DNA from: an uncultured virus (IMG/VR IMGVR_UViG_3300010158_003181)
Taxonomy: Duplodnaviria > Heunggongvirae > Uroviricota > Caudoviricetes
Strand: one strand, 5' to 3'
IMG/VR virus record: IMGVR_UViG_3300010158_003181
DNA: 64,000 bases
Translations under genes and position numbers: made by a program
Shown here: in pieces, positions 3,245 through 42,851 of the stretch
How positions within the stretch are numbered: the first letter of the stretch is position 1
Layout: each line of letters opens with the position of its first letter
Notes under the pieces: generated by a model
The model's database searches: none
Told to the model about the DNA's origin: nothing
The model's input: only the letters and a program-made list of their open reading frames with translations

Positions 3245-4255
3245 TTAATATTTTTCAACCAAATTATCACGGAATATTTCCCAAGCTCGTTGCCAACTCC
3301 AACGATAGCTTACTCTATGCACATCAGCTCTATTAATTTTCAAACACTTGTCAACAGCTACTCGTAGACCTTCTCTACCTTCAGCCATAAATCCAGTTAT
3401 ACCTTGATCAATTACATCTTTGGGGCCTTGACAGTTATAGGCAGCAACCGGAGTGCCACAGGCCATGGATTCAATCATCACAATGCCAAATGTTTCCCAC
3501 TTACTAGGAAACACAAAAACTTCAGCATTGGCATAATAACGTGCTAGATCTACGCCGGTCTTGAATCCAGTGAATGTAACATCTGGATATTGTTTCTTGT
3601 ATGTTTCCAGCATCGGTCCGTCACCCACCATGATCTTTTGGTAACCAGGATAATCTAATTCTAAGAAATCTTCTAGATTCTTTTCTTTACTAACACGGCT
3701 AACACATAACAAATATTTGCTAGGTAGCTGCTCTCTTAACTCTGGTTTAAAGATCGTTCTATCAACGCCGCGTGTCCAAGGAATAACTTCGCCCTTAAAT
3801 CCGTGTGCTTGTAATTCTGTTACCATGCTGTCCGTAGTGGTCAACACCTTGCCACTGTGTTTGTGGAACCAGCGAACAAAGTGCCAAGTTAAGAATTCTG
3901 GGATTCCAAATAGTTTTTTTAACCCTTCAGGAAATTTAGTATGATAAGCGGAATTATGCCTAATATTAGCCAATGACAAATACTTTCTAGCCCAACAACC
4001 AAGAGGACCTTCTGTCGCGATGTGTATATAATCCGGAGCAATCTCCTTGATCTTCTTGCCCATGTTACGGGGGTAGGCAAGTTTGACTTCGTTATATTTA
4101 GGGCAATCAATGTAGCTGAACCACCCGGGATGCAACACCACAAACTTATAACCATCCAAAATCGCACATGCCTCAATATTCGTATAGGTCGTGACCACGC
4201 CATTAATTTGCTCCGGTAAATTATCCGTTATGATTAGGATTGTTTTTTGTTTCAT
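3245..4255 (-). CDS. GT4 glycosyltransferase (Agt-like glycolipid synthase)
   Basis: TDNLPEQINGVV, HIATEGPLG, YHTKFPE, ETFGIVMIESMACGTPV. Confidence 0.85.
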   Translation of the reverse strand: MKQKTILIITDNLPEQINGVVTTYTNIEACAILDGYKFVVLHPGWFSYIDCPKYNEVKLAYPRNMGKKIKEIAPDYIHIATEGPLGCWARKYLSLANIRHNSAYHTKFPEGLKKLFGIPEFLTWHFVRWFHKHSGKVLTTTDSMVTELQAHGFKGEVIPWTRGVDRTIFKPELREQLPSKYLLCVSRVSKEKNLEDFLELDYPGYQKIMVGDGPMLETYKKQYPDVTFTGFKTGVDLARYYANAEVFVFPSKWETFGIVMIESMACGTPVAAYNCQGPKDVIDQGITGFMAEGREGLRVAVDKCLKINRADVHRVSYRWSWQRAWEIFRDNLVEKY

Positions 4256-4324
4256 ATTGTATTTACTAATAATAAATTAAGCCATTGTCTAATAGGTTTC
4301 TCCGTCATTTAGATAAATAAAAGT

Positions 4325-5290
4325 ATGAAACAACAAATATTAGAATACCTACAAGCATCTACTCTACAGAAGAAACTGATCTTTAGTCTGCGTAAGGCTT
4401 CTTGGTTTGGAGAGTTAGAAAAACAATTTGTTCAATTGAACTTGCCAGCAGAGTGGAATCTACAGAGAAAACTGTGGCATTATTGGAACGAAACTAATAT
4501 TGTTCCTTTATGCCCAATCTCGGGTAGGGAAAGAAAATGGAGAGACGGAGCGGCTGTTGAACGTATAGATATGCCCGGAATGAGCGAGGGATACAGTATG
4601 TTTGCTGATTACAAAGTAGCAGGCAAAGGTATTAAAAAATTAGCCAAACAAACTCTGCTAGAAAAATACGGAGTAGATAACCCTATGAATCTACCCGGGA
4701 TGTCAGAACAAAGAAAGAAACACTTTATTGAAAAATACGGTGTAGAAAATCCCAGTAGCAACGAACAAGTAAAACAAAAAAGAATCAATACTATGATGGA
4801 AAGACACGGGATTCCACATAATTTAGTAAATTGGCAGGAAAAGTTTTTTAATAAGTTTGGAGTCCGTAACCCTGCCCATGTTCCGGAAATTGCCGAAAAA
4901 TTATGCTACAACAGATTTAAGAAAAGAAAAGAATATACGCTATCAACAGGCGAAATCATACATCTACAAGGATACGAACCGTTTGGGTTTGACTACTTGA
5001 AGACAAAATACCAAGAAAATCAAATACAATATCGTAAAAAAGATATGCCAGAACTATGGTATAACTGGCAGGAAAAAACTCGTAGATATTATTGTGATTT
5101 CTTTGTAGCAGACGATAACCTGGTAGTAGAGATTAAAAGTCCATTTACTTTGAGTCGCGATCTTGATATCGTAAAACAGAAAATCCGTTCTGCTCAAACC
5201 AAGGGACACAAAGTTCTCCTGTTAGTATTTGATCGCTATGGACAGGTCGCACTGTTACCGGCTGAAATTGATTTCCTACTAACTGAATAA
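4325..5290 (+). mobile_element. free-standing putative homing endonuclease (KYGVxNP repeats plus PD-(D/E)XK domain)
   Basis: four KYGV(D/E)NP-like repeats; YYCDFF...VVEIKS motif; antisense to both neighbours. Confidence 0.7.
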
Positions 5291-6023
5291 TAATCCAATC
5301 ACCGTTGTGTGTTTCACACAAGGCAGTACAACTTTCTACCCAGTCCCCGGTATTACTGTACCAAACTCCATCTATTAGTTTTATTTCGGCCAAGTGTATA
5401 TGGCCACATATAATACCATCATATCCGCGTTTCTTACAATACGCTGCCAGATTCCGTTCAAAGTGGAATATAAAATCCACAGCTTTTTTTACTCGTCCTT
5501 TAAGATACTGGCTAAGACTAAAGTACCCAAAACCAAAGCGATGGCGTATCCAATTGAACCTACTATTAAGCGATAAAATGATATCATATGCTCGATCTCC
5601 TAAAAATGCTATCCAGGGTGCTAGTCTGGTGATGCCATCAAACAAGTCACCGTGAATGACTAGATAATGCTTACCATCGGCACCTATATGCTCTATTTGA
5701 TTGTGTATTTCTACTAGACCAAAACTGAAACCATACGGAATCATTGGTCTTAAAAATTCGTCGTGATTACCTGCAATGTATACTACTCTGGTGCCACGTT
5801 TGGCATGACCTAAGACCCTACGAACAACATTGGTGTGACTTTGTTTCCATCGCCATTTGTTCTGCTGTATGCGCCAGGCATCGATGATGTCGCCGACCAG
5901 GTACAAAGTCTCACAAGAGTTATGCTTCAAAAAATTATCAAGTTGCTCCGCCTTGCAATCTCTTGTTCCTAAATGTACATCACTCACACATATTGTTCTA
6001 TAAGTTTTGAGTTTATTTGACAT
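5145..6023 (-). CDS. plcP: LpxH/PlcP-family metallophosphoesterase (phospholipase C-like)
   Basis: SDVHLG, GDIID, GNHDE, HGD, GHIH and GDWVESCTAL motifs; adjacent to a GT4 gene. Confidence 0.75.
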   Translation of the reverse strand: MSNKLKTYRTICVSDVHLGTRDCKAEQLDNFLKHNSCETLYLVGDIIDAWRIQQNKWRWKQSHTNVVRRVLGHAKRGTRVVYIAGNHDEFLRPMIPYGFSFGLVEIHNQIEHIGADGKHYLVIHGDLFDGITRLAPWIAFLGDRAYDIILSLNSRFNWIRHRFGFGYFSLSQYLKGRVKKAVDFIFHFERNLAAYCKKRGYDGIICGHIHLAEIKLIDGVWYSNTGDWVESCTALCETHNGDWIIIQLVGNQFQPVTVRPVHSDQILTGELCVPWFEQNGFSVLRYQDRDSK

Positions 6024-6176
6024 ACAGATATTTATTGTAAAATGTTTACCAGAATATTACAACTGTGTTACAAATATAAATTGCAAATACAAAGATCATA
6101 AATATCTACACTTAACACTACTGCTGATAAATATCTTTGAGACTTGCAGGATTTCATTAATTCAAGGAAACTTAAC

Positions 6177-6812
6177 ATGAAAAAAATTGTATCGCTATTT
6201 TTATTGACAGCATTAACAGCCTGTGGCGGTGGAGGTACTTCAACAGACGTATCAACACCACAAGCAGTGAAATCATCAGTGGAAACAACCACTGATCTAC
6301 CAACATTTATTCAACTAACTCCCGGCATGGCCACTATTAGTGGATTTGTTGCTGGACCGGTCAGAGAACCAATCCCAGTGATAAAATTATCGGTGGAGAC
6401 ACTTGCTCAAATGCCTCCACCGTTTGTAACTGGTCCAAATCCTGATGGATCACCGTCTGGCCCGTTTGTTGCTGGGCCTGTACCGTTTGTTACAGGACCA
6501 CAACCGCAAACACCCTGTGCGCCTCAGTTTGTAGCTGGACCTGTTGTTGGGCCTACACCCTGTACTGTGCCAGTTCCCAGTGTGCCAGTAGTTGGACCGG
6601 GTCCTGTAGCCCAGTTGCCTTTTGTGATTGGTCCTATCGCAGGTCCTGTTGTTACATTAACTCCGCCCGTAGTAATTGGACCCAGCATTGTAACACAACC
6701 TGTGATCAATTACTGTACCAATGGATTTGTAGTTGGACCGTGTACACCACTGCCCACTACATGTAAACCGGATACCCCCGGTGGATTTGTAACAGGCCCT
6801 TGCTCGCCGTGA
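6177..6812 (+). CDS. Pro-rich lipoprotein with FVxGP repeats
   Basis: MKK...LTAC lipobox followed by GGGG; AAGGA RBS; upstream ATAAATA; downstream terminator. Confidence 0.75.
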   Translation: MKKIVSLFLLTALTACGGGGTSTDVSTPQAVKSSVETTTDLPTFIQLTPGMATISGFVAGPVREPIPVIKLSVETLAQMPPPFVTGPNPDGSPSGPFVAGPVPFVTGPQPQTPCAPQFVAGPVVGPTPCTVPVPSVPVVGPGPVAQLPFVIGPIAGPVVTLTPPVVIGPSIVTQPVINYCTNGFVVGPCTPLPTTCKPDTPGGFVTGPCSP

Positions 6813-6833
6813 AAAAGCCCCTTGCGGGGCTTT
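6812..6833. terminator. bidirectional intrinsic terminator
   Basis: AAAGCCCC-TTGC-GGGGCTTT between convergent genes. Confidence 0.75.
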
Positions 6834-6843
6834 CATCTCTGTG

Positions 6844-7002
6844 TTAAATCTGAACTATGGTCCACTTGTGTGTGAATGGTTTGCCTTCGGCCTTGTGTTT
6901 CAAGATTTTGGCGAATTCTTTCTTACGAAGTTCAAGCTGTTTCTCGGCATCGTGGTCGAAGCATGCCTTATACAACTCAGAAATTAATTTTCGTTGTTTC
7001 AT
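6844..7002 (-). CDS. small hypothetical protein (52 aa)
   Basis: AAGGAGG RBS and upstream ATAAATA; below the ORF-track length cutoff. Confidence 0.65.
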
Positions 7003-7084
7003 AGGTTGCCCCTCCTTGAAAACTATTTATACCGTTTTGAGTTAAAACAAGATTTTCTAGCCAAATTATGTACGATTAACAATA

Positions 7085-7732
7085 TCAACGTGACATTAAA
7101 TTATTAACAAAGTCCAGCAGTAGGGTATGATGTTGGCCGTGATGCCAATGCCGCTTTAAGTACGGCGTTGCATACCAAGATTCTAAACTGTCGGGACATG
7201 CTCCCATAAGTCCAATTCTATTCTGTATTATGGCCATTGGGTCACCGTTTGCATATGAAGCAATGGTGGTGAATTTTTTAGCATCACCTACAAAAGCACA
7301 TCCATCGCGGAAGAACATTTTCTGAGGCGTATTATTCCATATGACCGATGCAACTGTATTATAACTACGTCTGATATCAGCAGTGGGGCGTTTAATGTAT
7401 TGCACAGCATCTACACCGTCTAATATGTCAAAGAAGTGTTTTCCGGCCCAGTATGCACCAATGCATATTCCCAGATAACGGCCGCCATTACTAACATAGT
7501 CTGCCATTGCGTTTGCGGATTTTCTTAGAAAATATCCATCATAGTCGTCGGCTTCTCCCACACCACCAGGCAATGCAACCATGTCTACATTCTTAAATGT
7601 ACTAGAATTGCATTGTGCGTGACTAAACATTTTAATATTGTAGTATGGTGAAAGCACTTTAACCACACCATCGCAGCATTCTTCTGCTTCTTTGGAAGAA
7701 TAATCTTTAAGCAGGGCAATAGTAGGCTTCAT
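7085..7732 (-). CDS. BPL_N-like / class I glutamine amidotransferase-fold protein
   Basis: LPGG, GGRYLGICIGAYWA nucleophile elbow. Confidence 0.75.
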   Translation of the reverse strand: MKPTIALLKDYSSKEAEECCDGVVKVLSPYYNIKMFSHAQCNSSTFKNVDMVALPGGVGEADDYDGYFLRKSANAMADYVSNGGRYLGICIGAYWAGKHFFDILDGVDAVQYIKRPTADIRRSYNTVASVIWNNTPQKMFFRDGCAFVGDAKKFTTIASYANGDPMAIIQNRIGLMGACPDSLESWYATPYLKRHWHHGQHHTLLLDFVNNLMSR

Positions 7733-7837
7733 TTGAATATTGTATGTTCTGAATTAATCCACATGATCAATATTATTAGCCATAATATTCTTAATATATG
7801 GTCGACGATTATTTCATACCAATCAAACCATGTTTTT

Positions 7838-7984
7838 TTATTTTGATCTTGTTGTGTCATGTTGTATTGCCGGTTGTTCTATATTAATTTCGGGTTCAAT
7901 ATATTTGTCCCAAACTTTTTGACCAGCATTCCAGCCAAATACTGTACAAAATCCTATAATAACATATGTAAGAATAAATTCCAT
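7838..7984 (-). CDS. small membrane protein (48 aa)
   Basis: GGAGA RBS, hydrophobic N-terminus, upstream ATAAATA. Confidence 0.6.
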   Translation of the reverse strand: MEFILTYVIIGFCTVFGWNAGQKVWDKYIEPEINIEQPAIQHDTTRSK

Positions 7985-8055
7985 TGTTGTTCTCCTAACT
8001 GTATTTATTGGGGAAGTTTCTAGGGATTAATTTTCTTTAATAGCAAGCGGGATAT

Positions 8056-8106
8056 CTGTATGCTACATATTGGTCAGTGCATGAACAAGGCAATAGTAGG
8101 TTTCAT
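8056..8106 (-). pseudogene. truncated 5' fragment of a second BPL_N-like gene
   Basis: reads MKPTIALFMH*PICSIQ; first seven residues identical to the 7732 gene (MKPTIAL). Confidence 0.55.
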
Positions 8107-8115
8107 AATGTTTTG

Positions 8116-9246
8116 TTAAATTTTAATAATAGATTCAGGGCCCATTAATTCTTTAGATCCCTGCATGGTTCGATCTTGATTACGAATTCCCGGTGTACTT
8201 GTATCTTGTACTGGTGCTGCTCCGGGTACTGATTGTGTTGTTGTTGTTGTTGCTGTAGTAACGGGTGGTGCGGGTGGTGCTTCGGGTGGAGATAGTGTAA
8301 GGTCATCTAGCCATTTGACTTTTCTAGTTTCGTTCTTTGTATTAGTTTCTGCTCTAGCATTCTTAAGACCTAGATCCGGTCTACCTGTCATGTACCTAAC
8401 TGTAAGATAGGGTTCGTATATACCAGTAGGAGTAACACCATTATCATACACAGTGTCACCATTTAATTTAAACACACCCGAACCTGCTGGAGCTATAGAA
8501 ACTTTACCTACTAGAACGCAATTAACATTAGAAACTCCAACATCTTGTCCAAAATCTTTTCCAAAAACAATTTTATTTTTAATTTCATTGTTGTTGAGGT
8601 GAAGTCCAAATGATTCTCGTGGACCTAATTCTCCTCCTGTAATTTCTTTTATCTTATCGACCCATGCTTTTATAGTTGGATATGATCCGACTAAATGTGT
8701 AAAACCACCCCACTTTTTAAAATTATCTGCTTTTAGACTGACATATGCAACCGGCTCATTATTTTCATTAACGACCGTCATATCGCTTTTTACCCTTCCA
8801 GGCGTTTTTTCAAATCTTGCTGCATTAACTATTGATCCCTTGCCGACTATTAATTTAATAAAAGGTTGACCTGCTTTTAATTTTTCTAATTCTTCAGATA
8901 ACCCGGCAATTTGAGCTTGTTCTTTTCTTTCTCGAGAGAATGAACCTTCTCCGCCAAACTCTTTTGTTTTTTTAATTTTACCAAATGAAATAAACCTTGG
9001 TGGCTCTTCTATTGTTTTTAATTGGAAATTGGTGTTGTTTTGTTCCAAATTTTGAGCAATTTCGTCGTATTGGGTGGGATCAAATATAACTTTTTCTTCG
9101 CCCGCTGCTGTTTTAATTGTAAAAGGTGTCTGCATTATTATTTTATCTAAGAAAATAGGAACTCTATCTCTGTTAGGATGGTCCTTGTACTTGAACATTT
9201 CCTTATTGGTCAAATATGTTTCTGGTAAAAATTCTCTTGCTCTCAT
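8116..9246 (-). CDS. hypothetical late protein with a restriction-endonuclease-like core
   Basis: KSD...YVSLK...WGG pattern; N-terminal MRAREFLPE; TATAAATA just upstream. Confidence 0.5.
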   Translation of the reverse strand: MRAREFLPETYLTNKEMFKYKDHPNRDRVPIFLDKIIMQTPFTIKTAAGEEKVIFDPTQYDEIAQNLEQNNTNFQLKTIEEPPRFISFGKIKKTKEFGGEGSFSRERKEQAQIAGLSEELEKLKAGQPFIKLIVGKGSIVNAARFEKTPGRVKSDMTVVNENNEPVAYVSLKADNFKKWGGFTHLVGSYPTIKAWVDKIKEITGGELGPRESFGLHLNNNEIKNKIVFGKDFGQDVGVSNVNCVLVGKVSIAPAGSGVFKLNGDTVYDNGVTPTGIYEPYLTVRYMTGRPDLGLKNARAETNTKNETRKVKWLDDLTLSPPEAPPAPPVTTATTTTTQSVPGAAPVQDTSTPGIRNQDRTMQGSKELMGPESIIKI

Positions 9247-9255
9247 AACAAGTAT

Positions 9256-37594: not shown

Positions 37595-38686
37595 TTACAA
37601 GTCCGGTAATTCTTCGTATGTTACAGAGTCCGACATTACCCCAATAACATAATTCGTACTTTCAGTTTCCTGAAGTGCCGACTGCTTCTTGCCGATGTTG
37701 ACATGCTTATTAAACCATGGGATAGGACTAGATTTAGGATGTTCACCTAGATACTTAATGCCAATATCCTTGAGACGATTAAATGCGGTATAATCAACAA
37801 AATCGCTTAGGATAGCGGCATTAAGACCAATAACTGGTCCTAGTTTAAACAAATAGGTTGCCCAGGCCTTTTCTTCTTTTATAACTTCCATATACATAGC
37901 ATAAACTTCATCTCGACATTCTTCAACTAGATTAGCAAAATCAGCATCATCTTTTACTACATTATTAATAATCCAGGCAGTCCAATCTGCGTGTAGGATT
38001 TCGTCTTGTAGGATCAAGCTGATAATGTTGCCATTACCGATGTAGATTTTATTCTCTACCATGGCTAGACTTGTGGCAAATGAAACCATAAAGCGGAACG
38101 CTTCTAATGCATAGCTAGCATGTAATGCAAGCCAAATGGCTTTCTTATGTTCGTGTAGATCAATATCCTCACCACATGCTTTTCGACAATTGAGAATGTG
38201 TAAGGCTTCGTAGTAGCGACCAATACTAGCAGCCATTTCTACAATTTCTGTAGTGTCGTGAATCTTATTAAATTCTTCTTTAGGTACTCCATATACGTTA
38301 CGAATAATGTGACTGTAGCTTTTGCTATGAATATTTGTCTCGAACATCGACCAAATAGATACTAACGACTCAAGTTCAGGTAAACTAACAACGGGACTAA
38401 AAATTTGAACCGGTGCTCGACCCTGAATGCTGTCTAATGCTGTCTGTCTTAACAAGTTACTGGTAAAAATATGTTTAACTGCCTCACTTGCATCTTTGTG
38501 GTCCATTTTGTCTTTAGTGAGACTAATTTCCTCCGGCACCCAAAAAAATCCTCTTTGTAGTTCTTCAAACTTTGCAATTTTAGGCTGTCGATATTCTTCA
38601 AATCGTTGCACAGTTACTACACCATCTAAAAACATTTTTCGTTTTAAATAGTTAGTAGGTTTAGATAGGTCATATGTATTTGTCAT
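37595..38686 (-). CDS. nrdB: ribonucleotide reductase class Ia beta subunit
   Basis: FFWVPEE, ETNIHSKSY, LEAFRF, DEILH, QETE...Y. Confidence 0.95.
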   Translation of the reverse strand: MTNTYDLSKPTNYLKRKMFLDGVVTVQRFEEYRQPKIAKFEELQRGFFWVPEEISLTKDKMDHKDASEAVKHIFTSNLLRQTALDSIQGRAPVQIFSPVVSLPELESLVSIWSMFETNIHSKSYSHIIRNVYGVPKEEFNKIHDTTEIVEMAASIGRYYEALHILNCRKACGEDIDLHEHKKAIWLALHASYALEAFRFMVSFATSLAMVENKIYIGNGNIISLILQDEILHADWTAWIINNVVKDDADFANLVEECRDEVYAMYMEVIKEEKAWATYLFKLGPVIGLNAAILSDFVDYTAFNRLKDIGIKYLGEHPKSSPIPWFNKHVNIGKKQSALQETESTNYVIGVMSDSVTYEELPDL

Positions 38687-38877: not shown

Positions 38878-39370
38878 TCACTTTGAATATTTGTTCTAAC
38901 CATAATTTACAGTCATTCCATTTTTTATATATGTGTGACTGTCCGCCCGCATTTTCCCATTCTTGACAATTGCTGATTCTATCATCTATCAATATGTCTC
39001 CTGATTTGCAATGCTTCCATTTGTCGGTACTGTAAGGACCAAGGAAAACAGGAATACCGGGAAAATGTTCTTGCGCCCAAAAAACTTTATCTTGTATGGC
39101 CCATTGCATGTCGTTGTTGCGCGGTAATGCTGATAGAAAAAATAAATTCTCTACTTTGCCAGATTCAACAAGATCACGACAATATTGCACTAGGTCATGT
39201 GCATTATCTTTCAAAGGCAAATGGCGATAAAATCTAGAGTTCATTTTGATTTTATCCCAATCCTCCTGGGGAATACGGCCGCCTTCTCTTTCCCATTTCA
39301 TTTTAAGAAATTCTTCTGCACTAGTATGCCAATCGGCTACTACGTCATCCATGTCTAAATATATGTTCAT
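38867..39370 (-). CDS. 5'(3')-deoxyribonucleotidase (HAD family)
   Basis: YLDMDDVVAD, ILIDDR, W...GG. Confidence 0.85.
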   Translation of the reverse strand: MNIYLDMDDVVADWHTSAEEFLKMKWEREGGRIPQEDWDKIKMNSRFYRHLPLKDNAHDLVQYCRDLVESGKVENLFFLSALPRNNDMQWAIQDKVFWAQEHFPGIPVFLGPYSTDKWKHCKSGDILIDDRISNCQEWENAGGQSHIYKKWNDCKLWLEQIFKVTEH

Positions 39371-40056
39371 AATTTCATCCATTCATTGTCTTGTATTGGA
39401 ATCCAACCTTTTCTAAAATACTTTATCATATTCATAAAAGGCCCTGCCTCTTTGCCGTCATCTTTCCAGTTATAATTTTTATTCATAGTCAATCCGTATA
39501 ACTTACAATACGATGGTTTATTATTGTTAATCCATATATTGTAAATCTCATCGGCTCTTTTCCATAATGCTCGAGTAACATCGGTCGCCCTAGGATGATT
39601 CCAGGGCTTGACTCCAGCATTTGGATTCTTTTCGCCGCGCTTTGCTTCAGACATGGATTTCAATCCAGATTCTGTAAAACACGATGCATCAAAAGGCATA
39701 CCAAATTTCCAATGTGCAGATCCCCTTGGCTGATTTTTTCCAGGATTATTAGGACCACGCATATATTCGGAATATTGTCGTTTTAGCCAACCATATGCTT
39801 TATTGTTACGTTGTACATTGCTGTTTGATGATACCATAAACATAGCGGCTTTGACAAGGCGTATATTGTTAGGATGTATTTTAACTAACAACAGATGACA
39901 CAAGTAATGTTCTTCTGGTGTAAGTGATACTAAGTTAGTTGCTTCATCTGTTCCTTCCATACATCGTGGAACAATATGATGCTTTTCCTTATATCCTTCT
40001 AATATTCTGTTTTGTCCTCTCCTTATTATATTATTATATATTTTTTGGTAATCCAT
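39367..40056 (-). mobile_element. free-standing HNH homing endonuclease
   Basis: EKHHIVPRCMEG...NLVSLTPEEHYLCHLLL; NUMOD3-like GEKNP. Confidence 0.85.
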
Positions 40057-40112: not shown

Positions 40113-41093
40113 TCAAAGTTTGCAGGCTAAACAATCCTCTTCTTCTTCATATATTGTAACAGGTTCTGCTGTTACTAATCTATCACTTTGTGTATTTAAA
40201 ATATTCTTACTGCCCACTTTATCTATCAGACTATAGTACATTGTCTTTAAACCCCACTTGTAGGCCAACATTAAATTCTTTGCTATTAATGTGCCCGGCA
40301 CCTTGCCATCTTTAAAATGCCTTGGACTATAGAATGTATTAGTACTCAAACTTTGATCAACATACACTGCAAGTACAGCGGATGTCTTTAAGTATTCAAC
40401 ACAATCCTTTTGATCCCACATCATTTGATAACGATTCTTTAAACGGCGATATTCTGGAACCACTTGTACAAAACTACCTGCCTTGCTTTCTTTAACACTG
40501 ATCAGTTCCATGGGCATTTCAATACCATTGGTAGAATTTAATACAACACTACTAGACTCAACAGGAGCAACTGCCATAAGTGTAGCATTACGAATACCAT
40601 ACTTGATCATACGAGCACGTAGTGGTTCCCAATCCATGCTAGAAGTAAAGTCAGTTAATTCGTTAACACCGTTGGCTCTACGTTCCCAAGGAAATACTCC
40701 CCGACCGTAGTAAGTGTGTTCGCTACGCAGACAGGGGCCGCGCTCTTGGGCCAATTCCACACTGGTTTCGGTTAGGTAGTATGCCTGGTGTTCCATCCAA
40801 CGTTTGACTTCGGCCAGTGCTTCAGGTGTTCCATACTTGAAACTTTTGCGAGCATGCCAGTAGGCCAGATTTGTGATGCCAACTCCCAACGGTTCAAAGT
40901 CTTCGTTAGCCAGTTTACTTTGAATGCTCAAGAAGTCTTGATACTGCAATAGGTTGCTTAAACTACGCACCAGCACACGACAGGCTTTTCTCATTTCCTG
41001 TGGATTACGGAACGCTCCCCAATTGATTGATCCCAACGTGCATAAGGCTATCTTTGGTACAGCTCGTGTACATTCTTTTTTAACTATTTTCAT
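40113..41093 (-). CDS. nrdA: ribonucleotide reductase class Ia alpha subunit, C-terminal fragment
   Basis: IALCTL, PLGVG, APVESSS, TNGIE, KTMYY, terminal CLACKL; 14-aa non-RNR N-terminal extension. Confidence 0.95.
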   Translation of the reverse strand: MKIVKKECTRAVPKIALCTLGSINWGAFRNPQEMRKACRVLVRSLSNLLQYQDFLSIQSKLANEDFEPLGVGITNLAYWHARKSFKYGTPEALAEVKRWMEHQAYYLTETSVELAQERGPCLRSEHTYYGRGVFPWERRANGVNELTDFTSSMDWEPLRARMIKYGIRNATLMAVAPVESSSVVLNSTNGIEMPMELISVKESKAGSFVQVVPEYRRLKNRYQMMWDQKDCVEYLKTSAVLAVYVDQSLSTNTFYSPRHFKDGKVPGTLIAKNLMLAYKWGLKTMYYSLIDKVGSKNILNTQSDRLVTAEPVTIYEEEEDCLACKL

Positions 41094-41307
41094 TTTTTAA
41101 TGTTCTTCCTCTATAATAATTTTTATTTTCTTCTAGAAAATTATCCATAATAGATAACTCAATCCTGCAATTTGCTGTCCCATTAGTCACCCAGATCCAT
41201 TTTGCTGACTGCGATGATAAGTGTTTTTTATGTTCCGAACTTCTATAATATGGATTATACTTAACCCAGTTATCGGGCGCTAGTTCATTATTAATTAATT
41301 GAACCAA
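41080..41307 (-). pseudogene. remnant homing-endonuclease DNA-binding region inside split nrdA
   Basis: RSSEHKKHLS (NUMOD3-like) and WIWVTNG...RGR; no catalytic domain; TTG start. Confidence 0.6.
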
Positions 41308-41336
41308 TTTTGTCTGAAATACTATTACCCACTAAA

Positions 41337-42851
41337 TTATATTAACAAATCTCCGATATCATCTGTTTCATCTAGTTCTCGAACCTTTTTACGATTTCCA
41401 TCTTTAAGCAACACTTTATGTTCGCCGGGCAGAGTTAATTCTTCCCCGGTGTCGAGAGTGATCTTAAATTCACCTTCGTCGTCAATTCTTTGAAATGGAT
41501 AAGTTGGAAGTAAAATTTCCATACACAAATTCGATTGATATATTGGATCCACCGTTGTGTCAAACGGGCCCTGGTTGATGACATTGTCGATATTGACAAG
41601 ATATATGCGCCCAGTATCAGTACGTTCTTTAAGGATTCCAGCTTTGAATATCGCATCCGCCGATACAACTTTCTTTTTAACTTTCTTGTCCTGCTCATAT
41701 TGTAGGTATAACCTTTCGAACTCTTTACTGTCTCTGTAGTAGGCTTCGTATAGATCCGGAACTTCATGAGGATCAAACAACGTCATCATTTCACCACGTT
41801 TATAACGGTTCCAGAACATGGCATTAACTACCACTGAGTAATCCATTTGACGCACACGAGTTTCATCAGTACCTTGATTGTTCTTTAATACAATAAGATC
41901 TTCAAACTGTGCGTGCCAAATGGGGAATGTAACTGTACAGCTGGCGTTACGAATTCCGCCCTGCGAGCATGATCTCAAATCTGCAAACCATTTCTTCAAG
42001 AAAGGTATCATTCCAGTATGCTTGATCTCACCATTGCGAATAGGTGCACCTAAGGGTCTGATTCTGCCTATTTCGAGACCAATTCCGGCTCGTTTTGAGG
42101 CATATTTGGCCATCATTTCGCCGCTAGCAAAGATACTGTCTAAAGTGTCATCTGACGTTATCAATACACACGAGCTAAATTGTTTGGTGGTTGTTCCTAA
42201 TCCTGCTAGTACCGGAGTAGCTAATGTAAAGTGTCCACTACTAGCACATTCATAATATTCTTTTACAAGTTTTAATCTTGTTTCCTTGGGTTCATTATGA
42301 AAAGCTGTTGCGGCTGCAATAGCATAACGTACCTGCGGAGTTTCATAGACCTGTCCAGTGGCACGATTTTGTACAAGATACTTTTCTGTTAACTGTGCTA
42401 TCGCAGCAAATGTGTATGTTTCATCTTTATCATGGTCGATGAAAAGATCAATGATATCCCATTCATCTTCTGTGTACCAATCTAGCAATTTGCTAGTGTA
42501 CATGCCTGCCTCTGTATTTGTTTGTACAATGCTATAAAGTTTAGGAGGGTCGTATTTACCATAGACTTCTTTGCGTAGCATACTAACACGCTGACGTCCT
42601 GCTACGTATTGGTAATTGACATTGTTAATTTCTGGATTTTCTGTTTCATCTATCAAATTAACCATAGCTTTAAGCAATAGTTCATCTATAGTTTCTGTGG
42701 TCATTCCGTCATGGAGTTCAATTTGAGCTTTGATTTCGATCATTGATGGACTAACTCCATCAATTCCTCGGCATGCATGTGCTACTTGTCTTTGTATTTT
42801 TTCAATGTCCAATGGAACACGTTGTCCATTACGTTTGACCACTGTGATCAT
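41337..42851 (-). CDS. nrdA: ribonucleotide reductase class Ia alpha subunit, N-terminal fragment
   Basis: ATP cone VVKRNG, FSSCVL, QGGIR, QSNLCME; ends in a 44-aa intein-like tail. Confidence 0.95.
   Translation of the reverse strand: MITVVKRNGQRVPLDIEKIQRQVAHACRGIDGVSPSMIEIKAQIELHDGMTTETIDELLLKAMVNLIDETENPEINNVNYQYVAGRQRVSMLRKEVYGKYDPPKLYSIVQTNTEAGMYTSKLLDWYTEDEWDIIDLFIDHDKDETYTFAAIAQLTEKYLVQNRATGQVYETPQVRYAIAAATAFHNEPKETRLKLVKEYYECASSGHFTLATPVLAGLGTTTKQFSSCVLITSDDTLDSIFASGEMMAKYASKRAGIGLEIGRIRPLGAPIRNGEIKHTGMIPFLKKWFADLRSCSQGGIRNASCTVTFPIWHAQFEDLIVLKNNQGTDETRVRQMDYSVVVNAMFWNRYKRGEMMTLFDPHEVPDLYEAYYRDSKEFERLYLQYEQDKKVKKKVVSADAIFKAGILKERTDTGRIYLVNIDNVINQGPFDTTVDPIYQSNLCMEILLPTYPFQRIDDEGEFKITLDTGEELTLPGEHKVLLKDGNRKKVRELDETDDIGDLLI

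Follow-up and report, generated by a model that had tools for sequence, protein, structure and literature searches.

Known split nrdA genes and split inteins

The closest described counterpart of the gene analysed here, an nrdA gene for the large subunit of ribonucleotide reductase (RNR) that a lake phage encodes in two pieces, is the split nrdA of phage Aeh1, whose two products, NrdA-a and NrdA-b, carry extra tails. The lake phage is an uncultured member of the Caudoviricetes known from a 64,000-nucleotide (nt) stretch of DNA (IMG/VR record IMGVR_UViG_3300010158_003181), which is called the window below. In Aeh1 the tails are essential, with an activity about 2000-fold lower in their absence, and they are needed for dimerisation of the heterodimers, not for formation of the a/b heterodimer itself (Crona et al. 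2010, PMC3045599). In its sections on the tails, the same paper proposed both of them to be interaction domains supplied by a mobile element, and speculated that they originated as degenerate remnants of a split intein.

The lake phage locus resembles Aeh1 in several respects: the break in nrdA is in the same loop and separates the thiyl-radical Cys/Glu from the cysteine equivalent to C462, a homing endonuclease gene lies between the halves, and the halves are unspliced and carry extra tails of opposite charge. However, the endonuclease of Aeh1 is of the HNH type (mobE), whereas it is GIY-YIG here and of other kinds in relatives, and the polarity of the tails is reversed, the Aeh1 N piece being basic and the C piece acidic (pI 10.4 and 3.8; PMC3045599). 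Furthermore, the database searches with the Aeh1 tails, as described in the corresponding section of that paper, found nothing (PMC3045599), whereas a profile of the tail reported here has significant matches to inteins. Tail function was assayed in Aeh1, whereas here the tail is known from its sequence. The Aeh1 nrdA system is said to be treated also in Friedrich et al. 2007, which Crona et al. 2010 cite.

Split inteins encoded by fractured genes are the second point of comparison. In published models their parts meet through the two longest antiparallel strands, which are of opposite charge, and the break lies between motifs N4 and C2 (PMC2677866); the interacting strands of the NrdA-2 and DnaE split inteins are reported to have the same charge polarity as the tail and head here, the N part of NrdA-2 being negative and its C part positive (Dassa et al. 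2009, PMC2677866). As in these fractured genes, the lake phage locus has two open reading frames (ORFs) on the same strand, separated by a GIY-YIG gene that overlaps the downstream start codon with its 3' end, and, as in NrdA-2, the intein is broken between N4 and C2 with a negative N part and a positive C part. In contrast, the NrdA inteins in the relevant sections of Dassa et al. 2009 are complete and sit directly before the thiyl-radical Cys, whereas the site here lies about 18 residues later, only the neighbours of the split point are kept and there are no trans-splicing halves. By sequence, the closest relatives of the tail are the split inteins of uvsW-like helicases (P0151, P0154, P0180 and others; loci L210-L289). 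These share the tail pattern ...ITGNHKVLL..G.WKRVDEL.E.DDI.. followed by a stop codon, then an endonuclease gene, and then a C-intein starting MKIKKI..., but unlike the nrdA tail and head they still possess Cys1 (DECLHPDT), the Thr of block B, block F/G (...NHNYFA....VSN, then C) and the +1 Cys.

Split phage RNR genes were also listed by Dwivedi et al. (2013, PMC3653736), in whose sections on these genes the half-intein point is not made. Our literature search, which did not cover subscription papers, turned up no description of a natural, truncated split intein that has been retained as a docking module. The Aeh1 tails and the speculation on split inteins were known already; at the present locus the sequence itself allows the intein ancestry to be recognised.

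The split nrdA gene of the window

In the window nrdA consists of two ORFs on the minus strand and in the same frame, which code for 504 and 326 amino acids (aa). The N-half ORF (41337-42851, with its TAA stop at 41337-41339) ends ...QSNLCMEILLPTYPFQRIDDEG plus 44 extra residues. Its core (residues 1-460; 41472-42851) comprises the ATP cone, the all-alpha domain and the barrel's first half as far as the finger loop QSNLC443-M-E445, and matches PF03477, PF00317 and positions 1-222 of PF02867. The C-half ORF (40113-41093) starts MKIVKKECTRAVPK and then IALCTLGS; its core (40113-41051), from IALC18TLGS to the C-terminal CLACKL, matches positions 223-433 of PF02867, the RNR barrel, and aligns by tblastn to intact phage NrdA. 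The break lies just past the finger loop with the thiyl-radical Cys and before the IALC cysteine, so that C443 and E445 are in the N-half and C18 is in the C-half. Across both ORFs the features of a class Ia RNR large subunit are complete (ATP cone, all-alpha domain, ten-stranded barrel, QSNLCME, FSSCVL, IALC and CLACKL); the roles of the catalytic residues are presumably those established for E. coli NrdA. An earlier note on this DNA, made from its letters, had described nrdA as two genes with the break between QSNLCME and IALC, and the ORFs, their coordinates and the division of the Pfam match into 1-222 and 223-433 agree with that description.

The split is real, and is not a chance frame break and hardly an assembly artefact, because intact relatives read through the place in frame, the split form recurs in other assemblies, and independent contigs show both forms of the gap. 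The N-half core is 80-91% identical to nrdA of the best 80 IMG/VR relatives, and in 77 of these 80 the two parts are adjacent and in frame, that is, nrdA is intact; translation of the junction in seven intact relatives gave ...RIEDPEGRIALCTLGS with no stop. The other three have a split gene, which carries the same tail in L036 and different extensions in L048 and L080. A scan specific for the tail yielded nine loci, with a gap of 243 nt in the window and in L085 and of 810-811 nt in the seven others. The 243-nt gap is bridged by one DNA contig of public run X7, from an independent study, and a contig of public run X6 has about 557 extra letters at 41307-41317, which corresponds to the longer form with the endonuclease gene. 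In two RNA-library runs (X5 and X9) no contig was found that skips the gap; contigs there cover the gap and the tail, with DNA carry-over being possible. The homologs with the same break that the earlier note had suggested looking for are present in other assemblies (e.g. L036), and neither of its two caveats at this level was borne out, since the contigs of independent runs, which bridge the gap or carry the longer endonuclease form, indicate no mis-assembly and no joint across the gap appears in the two RNA-library runs. The closest named relatives are the NrdA proteins of Xanthomonas, Ralstonia and Stenotrophomonas phages (51-61% identity). No near-identical phage record was found by megablast against phage records, and the nearest virus record (G001) has a single tail only, with no intein above the cut-off.

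Similarity of the N-half tail to inteins

The 44-aa C-terminal tail of the N-half, EFKITLDTGEELTLPGEHKVLLKDGNRKKVRELDETDDIGDLLI (41340-41471, minus strand; net charge -5), probably derives from a Hint domain, of which it would represent the part from block B/N3 to N4, up to the split point. Eighteen columns are invariant among its 15 distinct variants. A profile made from these 15 variants was searched against 1.84 billion representative proteins with a threshold of E<=0.001, and 51 proteins were found: six tail-bearing NrdA pieces, three long repetitive proteins, which were set aside, and 42 that were scanned with Pfam. Intein_splicing or Hint was found at E<=0.001 in 39 of the 42. In these 39 inteins the matched stretch is block B onward, 65-70 residues after Cys1/block A, and at least ten of these proteins terminate a few residues past it, which points to N pieces of split inteins, mostly of uvsW-like helicases (for example, ...ITGNHKVLLQSGVWKRVDELEEGDDIID). 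When the window tail alone was compared with Pfam, it matched Intein_splicing at E 0.029 (14.6 bits, the gathering cut-off being 35.8) and Big_4 at E 0.0016, and positions 51-92 of Intein_splicing matched all 15 tail variants at E<=1 (best 0.0034), always below the cut-off. Additionally, a hidden Markov model (HMM) of the tail, run over 1.1 million residues of fetched loci, had as its sole matches other than tails two inteins of locus L090 (E 0.0028 and 0.47).

The profile search and the Pfam matches support the homology of the tail to the part of inteins that extends from block B to the split point. The earlier note had read the tail as following the block-B region, and this reading fits the profile search, in which 39 of the 42 scanned matches are inteins with block B aligned. 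The comparison with intein and Hint HMMs that it had proposed gave a divided result, as the Pfam models stayed below their gathering score while the profile of the 15 tails recovered inteins at E<=0.001.

A different alignment, in which the tail is read as block A, was set aside. It pairs the tail with the first 27 residues of the L090 N-intein, with 21/41 identities and a pairwise E of 1e-7, but the locus had been found via an exact 8-mer of the tail and by rough scaling the match is not significant collection-wide. The block-A reading is also weakened by the family consensus, and the block-B alignment spans the whole tail and has the support of the large search. In locus L090 itself (3678-9252) a real split intein breaks up the gene for DNA polymerase III alpha. 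A 769-aa ORF joins the N part of this intein in frame to a GIY-YIG domain, and the following ORF has a 36-aa C-intein at its start and, in addition, another intein that is contiguous.

The head of the C-half

The C-half begins with the extension MKIVKKECTR (41064-41093, minus strand; net charge +3), which resembles the first residues of C-intein fragments, and continues with a variable four-residue linker, AVPK (41052-41063, minus strand), at the place of nrdA's own PEGR, with a ratio of nonsynonymous to synonymous differences (pN/pS) of 0.71. By comparison with intact relatives the true extension is about 10 aa long, since the next four residues take the PEGR position, which is ESGR or EGGR in relatives; the coordinates 41052-41093 given in the earlier note for the extension hold, and the length that they imply has to be shortened by these last four residues. 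When the first 60 residues of the C-half were used as the query, 1002 proteins of 179-571 aa were found at E<=0.001, and M[KR][ILV][IVT]KK... stands before IALCTLGS in all of the 120 matches listed.

The natural partners of real tail-like N-inteins start in a similar way. Eighty loci with such N-inteins (uvsW) were fetched with an alignment-based search, a search for related loci with P0154 alone having found nothing, and the end of the N-intein was found in 55. Downstream of it, 43 of these 55 loci have a C-intein, which gave 30 distinct sequences, and 19 of the 30 start M[KR][IVL][KIVT][KTSE][IVLK], mostly MKIK[KST]I and typically MKIKKIKKIEHSDNVYNLRIEDNHNYFVNNLCVSN followed by C. In uvsW loci and nrdA loci alike, the endonuclease ORF ends ...ENN and overlaps the downstream start. 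A similar strand is also present in contiguous mini-inteins, a few residues after the tail-like part (...YVKIKKIIEPKKKTDVYDIL in P0144 and ...HKVAKIEPCGFEDVF in P0172). These observations support a resemblance between the C-half head and the start of the C-inteins that partner tail-like N-inteins, and the claim of the earlier note that MKIVKK is like the first strand of split-intein C-fragments is strengthened by the 19 of 30 real partners that start alike.

Absence of the splicing residues

At the N junction the tail starts E-F-K-I directly after ...DDEG, and there is no Cys or Ser in any of the variants (15/15). Block A is absent, as the stretch that lies 65-70 residues upstream of the matched part in real inteins has no counterpart in the tail. 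The block-B motif TxxH is replaced by P/A/R/L-G-E/Q-H, in which the His is invariant (15/15) and the Thr is substituted in all. Blocks F/G are absent from the C-half, which has no ...VYD..., no NHNYFA-type motif and no terminal Asn, all of them motifs that the real partners possess, and the residue after the head is no +1 nucleophile (15 tails and 120 heads listed). As judged from these residues, protein splicing of the NrdA halves is excluded, because neither the Cys1 of block A nor block F/G nor a terminal Asn exists; the earlier note had already reported the splicing residues as missing, which proves right for all of these as well as for the block-B Thr.

The gap and its endonuclease genes

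The 243-nt gap between the halves (41094-41336, minus strand) is a remnant of a GIY-YIG homing endonuclease gene, left by a 567-nt deletion with its junction at about 41311/41312. At the same place seven of the nine close loci (L036, L083, L084, L088 and others) have an intact, free-standing GIY-YIG ORF of 258 aa, of which only the last 75 codons are kept in the window and in L085. The window is the same as L084 on both sides of the deletion, which took away the start and the catalytic domain. Compared with L036:1320-2096, the remaining 75-codon open frame (41080-41307, minus strand) corresponds to the C-terminal, DNA-binding end of the endonuclease, and it has no Pfam match alone. The first codons of the C-half are read in two frames, because the end of the endonuclease ORF overlaps the C-half by 14 nt.

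The tail was present in all 33 loci that have the C-half head and upstream DNA available, a count that includes some contigs fetched twice. The slot between tail and head is occupied by a GIY-YIG type A gene in 10 of the 33 loci, by a 363-aa HNH-like ORF on the opposite strand in another 10 (Pfam HNH_4 only at E 0.0077), by a SegE-like GIY-YIG gene in seven, by a Zn-finger ORF with no family assigned in five, and by a deletion remnant in one. On the comparison of these loci, the tail/head pair is older than its endonuclease, because the tail is kept in all 33 while the contents of the slot differ; at least four kinds of occupant are present and the tail persists throughout. The interpretation given in the earlier note is upheld in part, since the intein origin stands and the pairing of tail and head is a prediction; the endonuclease remnant in the gap, the turnover of endonucleases at the slot and the proposals of Crona et al. 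2010 had been overlooked.

About 60 nt of nrdA before the break (41480-41560, minus strand) are far more diverged from intact relatives (L003, L004, L051 and others) than the sequence upstream of them, and are common to the split L036. This stretch looks like either a tract of co-conversion or a form of the endonuclease target that resists cleavage.

Selection and possible function of the tail and head

Purifying selection acts on the tail much as it does on the enzyme core. Its pN/pS is 0.225 (bootstrap 0.15-0.31; 91 pairs, 14 distinct loci), compared with 0.218 in the enzyme core (108 codons) and 0.27 in the 18 codons that precede the tail, and as synonymous sites are saturated (pS about 0.8) the true pN/pS is lower. 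The head has a pN/pS of 0.12 at a pS of only 0.46, which is low because the head overlaps the end of the endonuclease gene and is read in two frames. In addition, the charges are opposite in all 14 loci, with -3 to -6 for the tail and +3 for the head.

We consider it fairly probable that the two halves of nrdA carry the ends of a dead split intein, which still dock and thereby aid assembly into the active enzyme. According to this explanation, the N-half would end with the final ~44 residues of an N-intein, which comprise block B/N3 and N4 and reach the canonical point of splitting and endonuclease insertion, and would be followed by the N-intein's own stop codon and by the slot for a free-standing endonuclease gene, cut here by the deletion to 75 codons, while the C-half would begin with the start codon and first ~10 residues of the C-intein. 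The parts needed for the chemistry (block A/Cys1, the block-B Thr, blocks F/G, the terminal Asn and the +1 nucleophile) would have been lost, and with them splicing, whereas the acidic tail and the basic head would keep the mutual affinity of the N- and C-intein strands. Docking would then help the barrel halves, or the dimer of heterodimers (a/b)2, to assemble into the active enzyme, in the manner of the Aeh1 tails, which are unrelated. Sequence comparison shows that the ends come from an intein, that its catalytic parts have been lost, that selection acts on the tail and that the arrangement has spread, and we infer from the analysis as a whole that tail and head dock and that this aids assembly. 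An AlphaFold2 model of the N-half, based on a shallow alignment (28 rows), had a mean pLDDT of 50.4 and showed the tail as four short strands with pLDDT about 39-62, a quality too low for use, and a three-chain complex prediction with the N-core (residues 140-460), the C-half and the tail as partner, run without controls, gave a score of 0.21 (mark 0.32), which speaks neither in favour of binding nor against it.

Several points weigh against this explanation. The tail never reaches a Pfam gathering score, and Big_4, which matches 9 of the 15 variants, scores better on the window tail than Intein_splicing does. The three long repetitive proteins among the 51 profile matches were aligned in 11-25 short stretches, and because they match, part of the tail profile appears to pick up generic beta-hairpins as well. 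A sequence search of the PDB with the tail alone gave no match, and a profile search of the PDB gave nothing significant, the best E being 0.26, for ribosomal L23, and an E of 1.2 being reached by the chain of an archaeal CDC21 intein. The head, with 10 aa, is too short for statistics, so that its likeness to C-inteins is one of position and pattern, and its conservation is partly at the DNA level (endonuclease overlap and translation start) and not purely at the protein level. The pN/pS values were obtained from non-independent pairs. Lastly, a simple clasp may be the wrong picture, because the Aeh1 tails are not needed for the a/b heterodimer.

This last point leads to an alternative with the same origin and another job for the tail, which could support dimerisation of the (a/b) heterodimers or shape the broken active-site loop. 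Tail-less Aeh1 proteins still form the a/b heterodimer, fail to dimerise and lose activity (PMC3045599), and the break is in the same loop in both phages, with Cys431/Glu433 versus Cys31 in Aeh1 and C443/E445 versus C18 here. We regard this as unlikely, though worth keeping in sight, since the retained pieces are exactly those that flank the split point of split inteins, published models pair these flanking pieces as long antiparallel strands of opposite charge (PMC2677866), and the charges are complementary in 14/14 loci. It is rather improbable that the tail and head are functionless leftovers of a decayed split intein or endonuclease cassette, with the native barrel interface alone assembling the halves. 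The binding of tail and head is a prediction, the endonuclease gene of the window is itself decaying, and conservation of the head is explained in part by the ORF overlap; against this, the tail has a pN/pS equal to that of the enzyme core at saturated synonymous divergence, has its 18 invariant columns, and has survived both the exchange of slot occupants, of which there are at least four kinds, and the loss of the endonuclease.

Very improbable, and disfavoured by us, is a third explanation, that the tail arose as a copy of the nrdA segment that comes next (KITLDT... from RIALCT...), has since diverged, and stayed behind when an endonuclease cassette was inserted together with a fresh copy. 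MAFFT does place the tail over KIALCTLGS..., with 8/32 identities, about 10 of 15 nucleotides match at the tail start, and a short host motif, E-G/S-G-R, flanks the cassette on both sides in some relatives, but BLASTP gave no alignment with a threshold as loose as E<=100, KLTLDNG, the consensus start of the tail family, is further from nrdA, and the tail profile finds inteins and not NrdA cores. That the locus is a cryptic active trans-splicing element, or an assembly or pseudogene artefact, is barely conceivable, for although real split inteins are abundant in nrdA of relatives, the tail and head amount to only 54 residues without Cys/Ser1, block A, blocks F/G, terminal Asn or +1 nucleophile, the same arrangement occurs in independent assemblies and runs, and both halves are under purifying selection.

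Other splits and inteins in relatives

A second kind of split at the same nrdA loop is present in L048 (5408-8720) and L080 (6001-9448), with a SegE-like GIY-YIG gene between the pieces. The N piece has a basic tail (...PKKKLIRIKKTNVDEFMKTKSTDIFKIRKIK) and the C piece an acidic head (MNNLYEEIEYLPEELDDEYDYYEIEEE...), a polarity like that reported for Aeh1. Further inteins were found in nrdA of relatives (P0003, P0006, P0007; L091, L093, L096, L097, L102; P0132; P0062, P0078, P0127). One is at the site between ...C and SQGGIRN, where middle pieces of 335-344 aa begin inside the intein, another lies directly before the thiyl-radical Cys (...FANNILVHN, then CEILLPT), and another is inside the C-half, in proteins of 474-481 aa with Intein_splicing. 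P0132 (96 aa) consists of a C-intein, an 18-residue extein and the tail, and its nrdA would therefore be made in at least three pieces, one of them almost without enzyme.

In the IMG/VR loci L130-L137 (e.g. L130:4150-5260) an endonuclease gene, which is of one of two kinds, interrupts a T4-like DNA polymerase B gene (polB). The N piece has a 40-aa tail that is about 50% identical to the consensus of the nrdA tail, with no block A and no His, and the C piece starts MKI[KI][TK]IKK.N.G, followed by VDYN.Y.DT. The stop codon of the latter is inside a 5-nt insert, TAACT in six loci and TGACA in one, whose last three letters again form a Thr codon; after it the other frame continues DSVFYEA, which places the insert inside the catalytic DTDS motif. 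All seven of the loci that extend this far (7/7) have the insert, which the intact L141 and L146 lack, and it is a candidate for a programmed 5-nt hop or frameshift.

The tail starts resemble the host sequence that would be expected after the break, both in nrdA (KITLDT versus RIALCT; window 41450-41471) and in polB (IYDITLE versus IYVDTDS; L130 at about 4150). This likeness, with E-G/S-G-R on both sides of the cassette in some nrdA relatives, may be a trace of insertion or may be due to chance.

Neighbouring genes

Another homing endonuclease gene, of the HNH type, intact and coding for 229 aa (39367-40056, minus strand), lies outside the split, between the C-half and nrdB, in the place of mobE in T4. 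Its product has weak Pfam matches to HNH and NUMOD3 and tblastn matches to annotated phage homing endonucleases with E down to 5e-48. Because this second gene is intact between nrdA-C and nrdB, the nrdA-nrdB region of the phage appears to have been hit at least twice. The gene for the small-subunit partner, nrdB (363 aa; 37595-38686, minus strand), is identified by the gene order, which is that of the annotated phages X1 and S-RIM2, and by its similarity to the nrdB ORFs in L036 and L088.

Wider meaning

As a tentative extension, with a little less than an even chance in our estimation, the tail with its stop codon, the exchangeable endonuclease slot and the start codon with its head could together form a portable gene-splitting cassette, which lands in different essential genes harmlessly. 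The half-Hint ends would supply the translation signals and a docking module, and no chemistry would be needed. In favour of such a cassette, a homologous tail (~50% identical, without block A) and an MKIKTIKK head flank the endonuclease genes in the split phage DNA polymerase B, and several endonuclease families alternate in the nrdA slot.

The 2010 speculation, that tails which rescue an endonuclease-fragmented gene are degenerate split inteins, becomes testable with this family, which is large and diverse and in which natural controls coexist: intact nrdA, split nrdA with and without the endonuclease gene, and real splicing relatives. If our explanation is true, the tail and head would be a small natural pair of non-reactive docking peptides (44 + 10 residues), useful to split-protein engineers, and a selfish element would have made its own insertion harmless without splicing.

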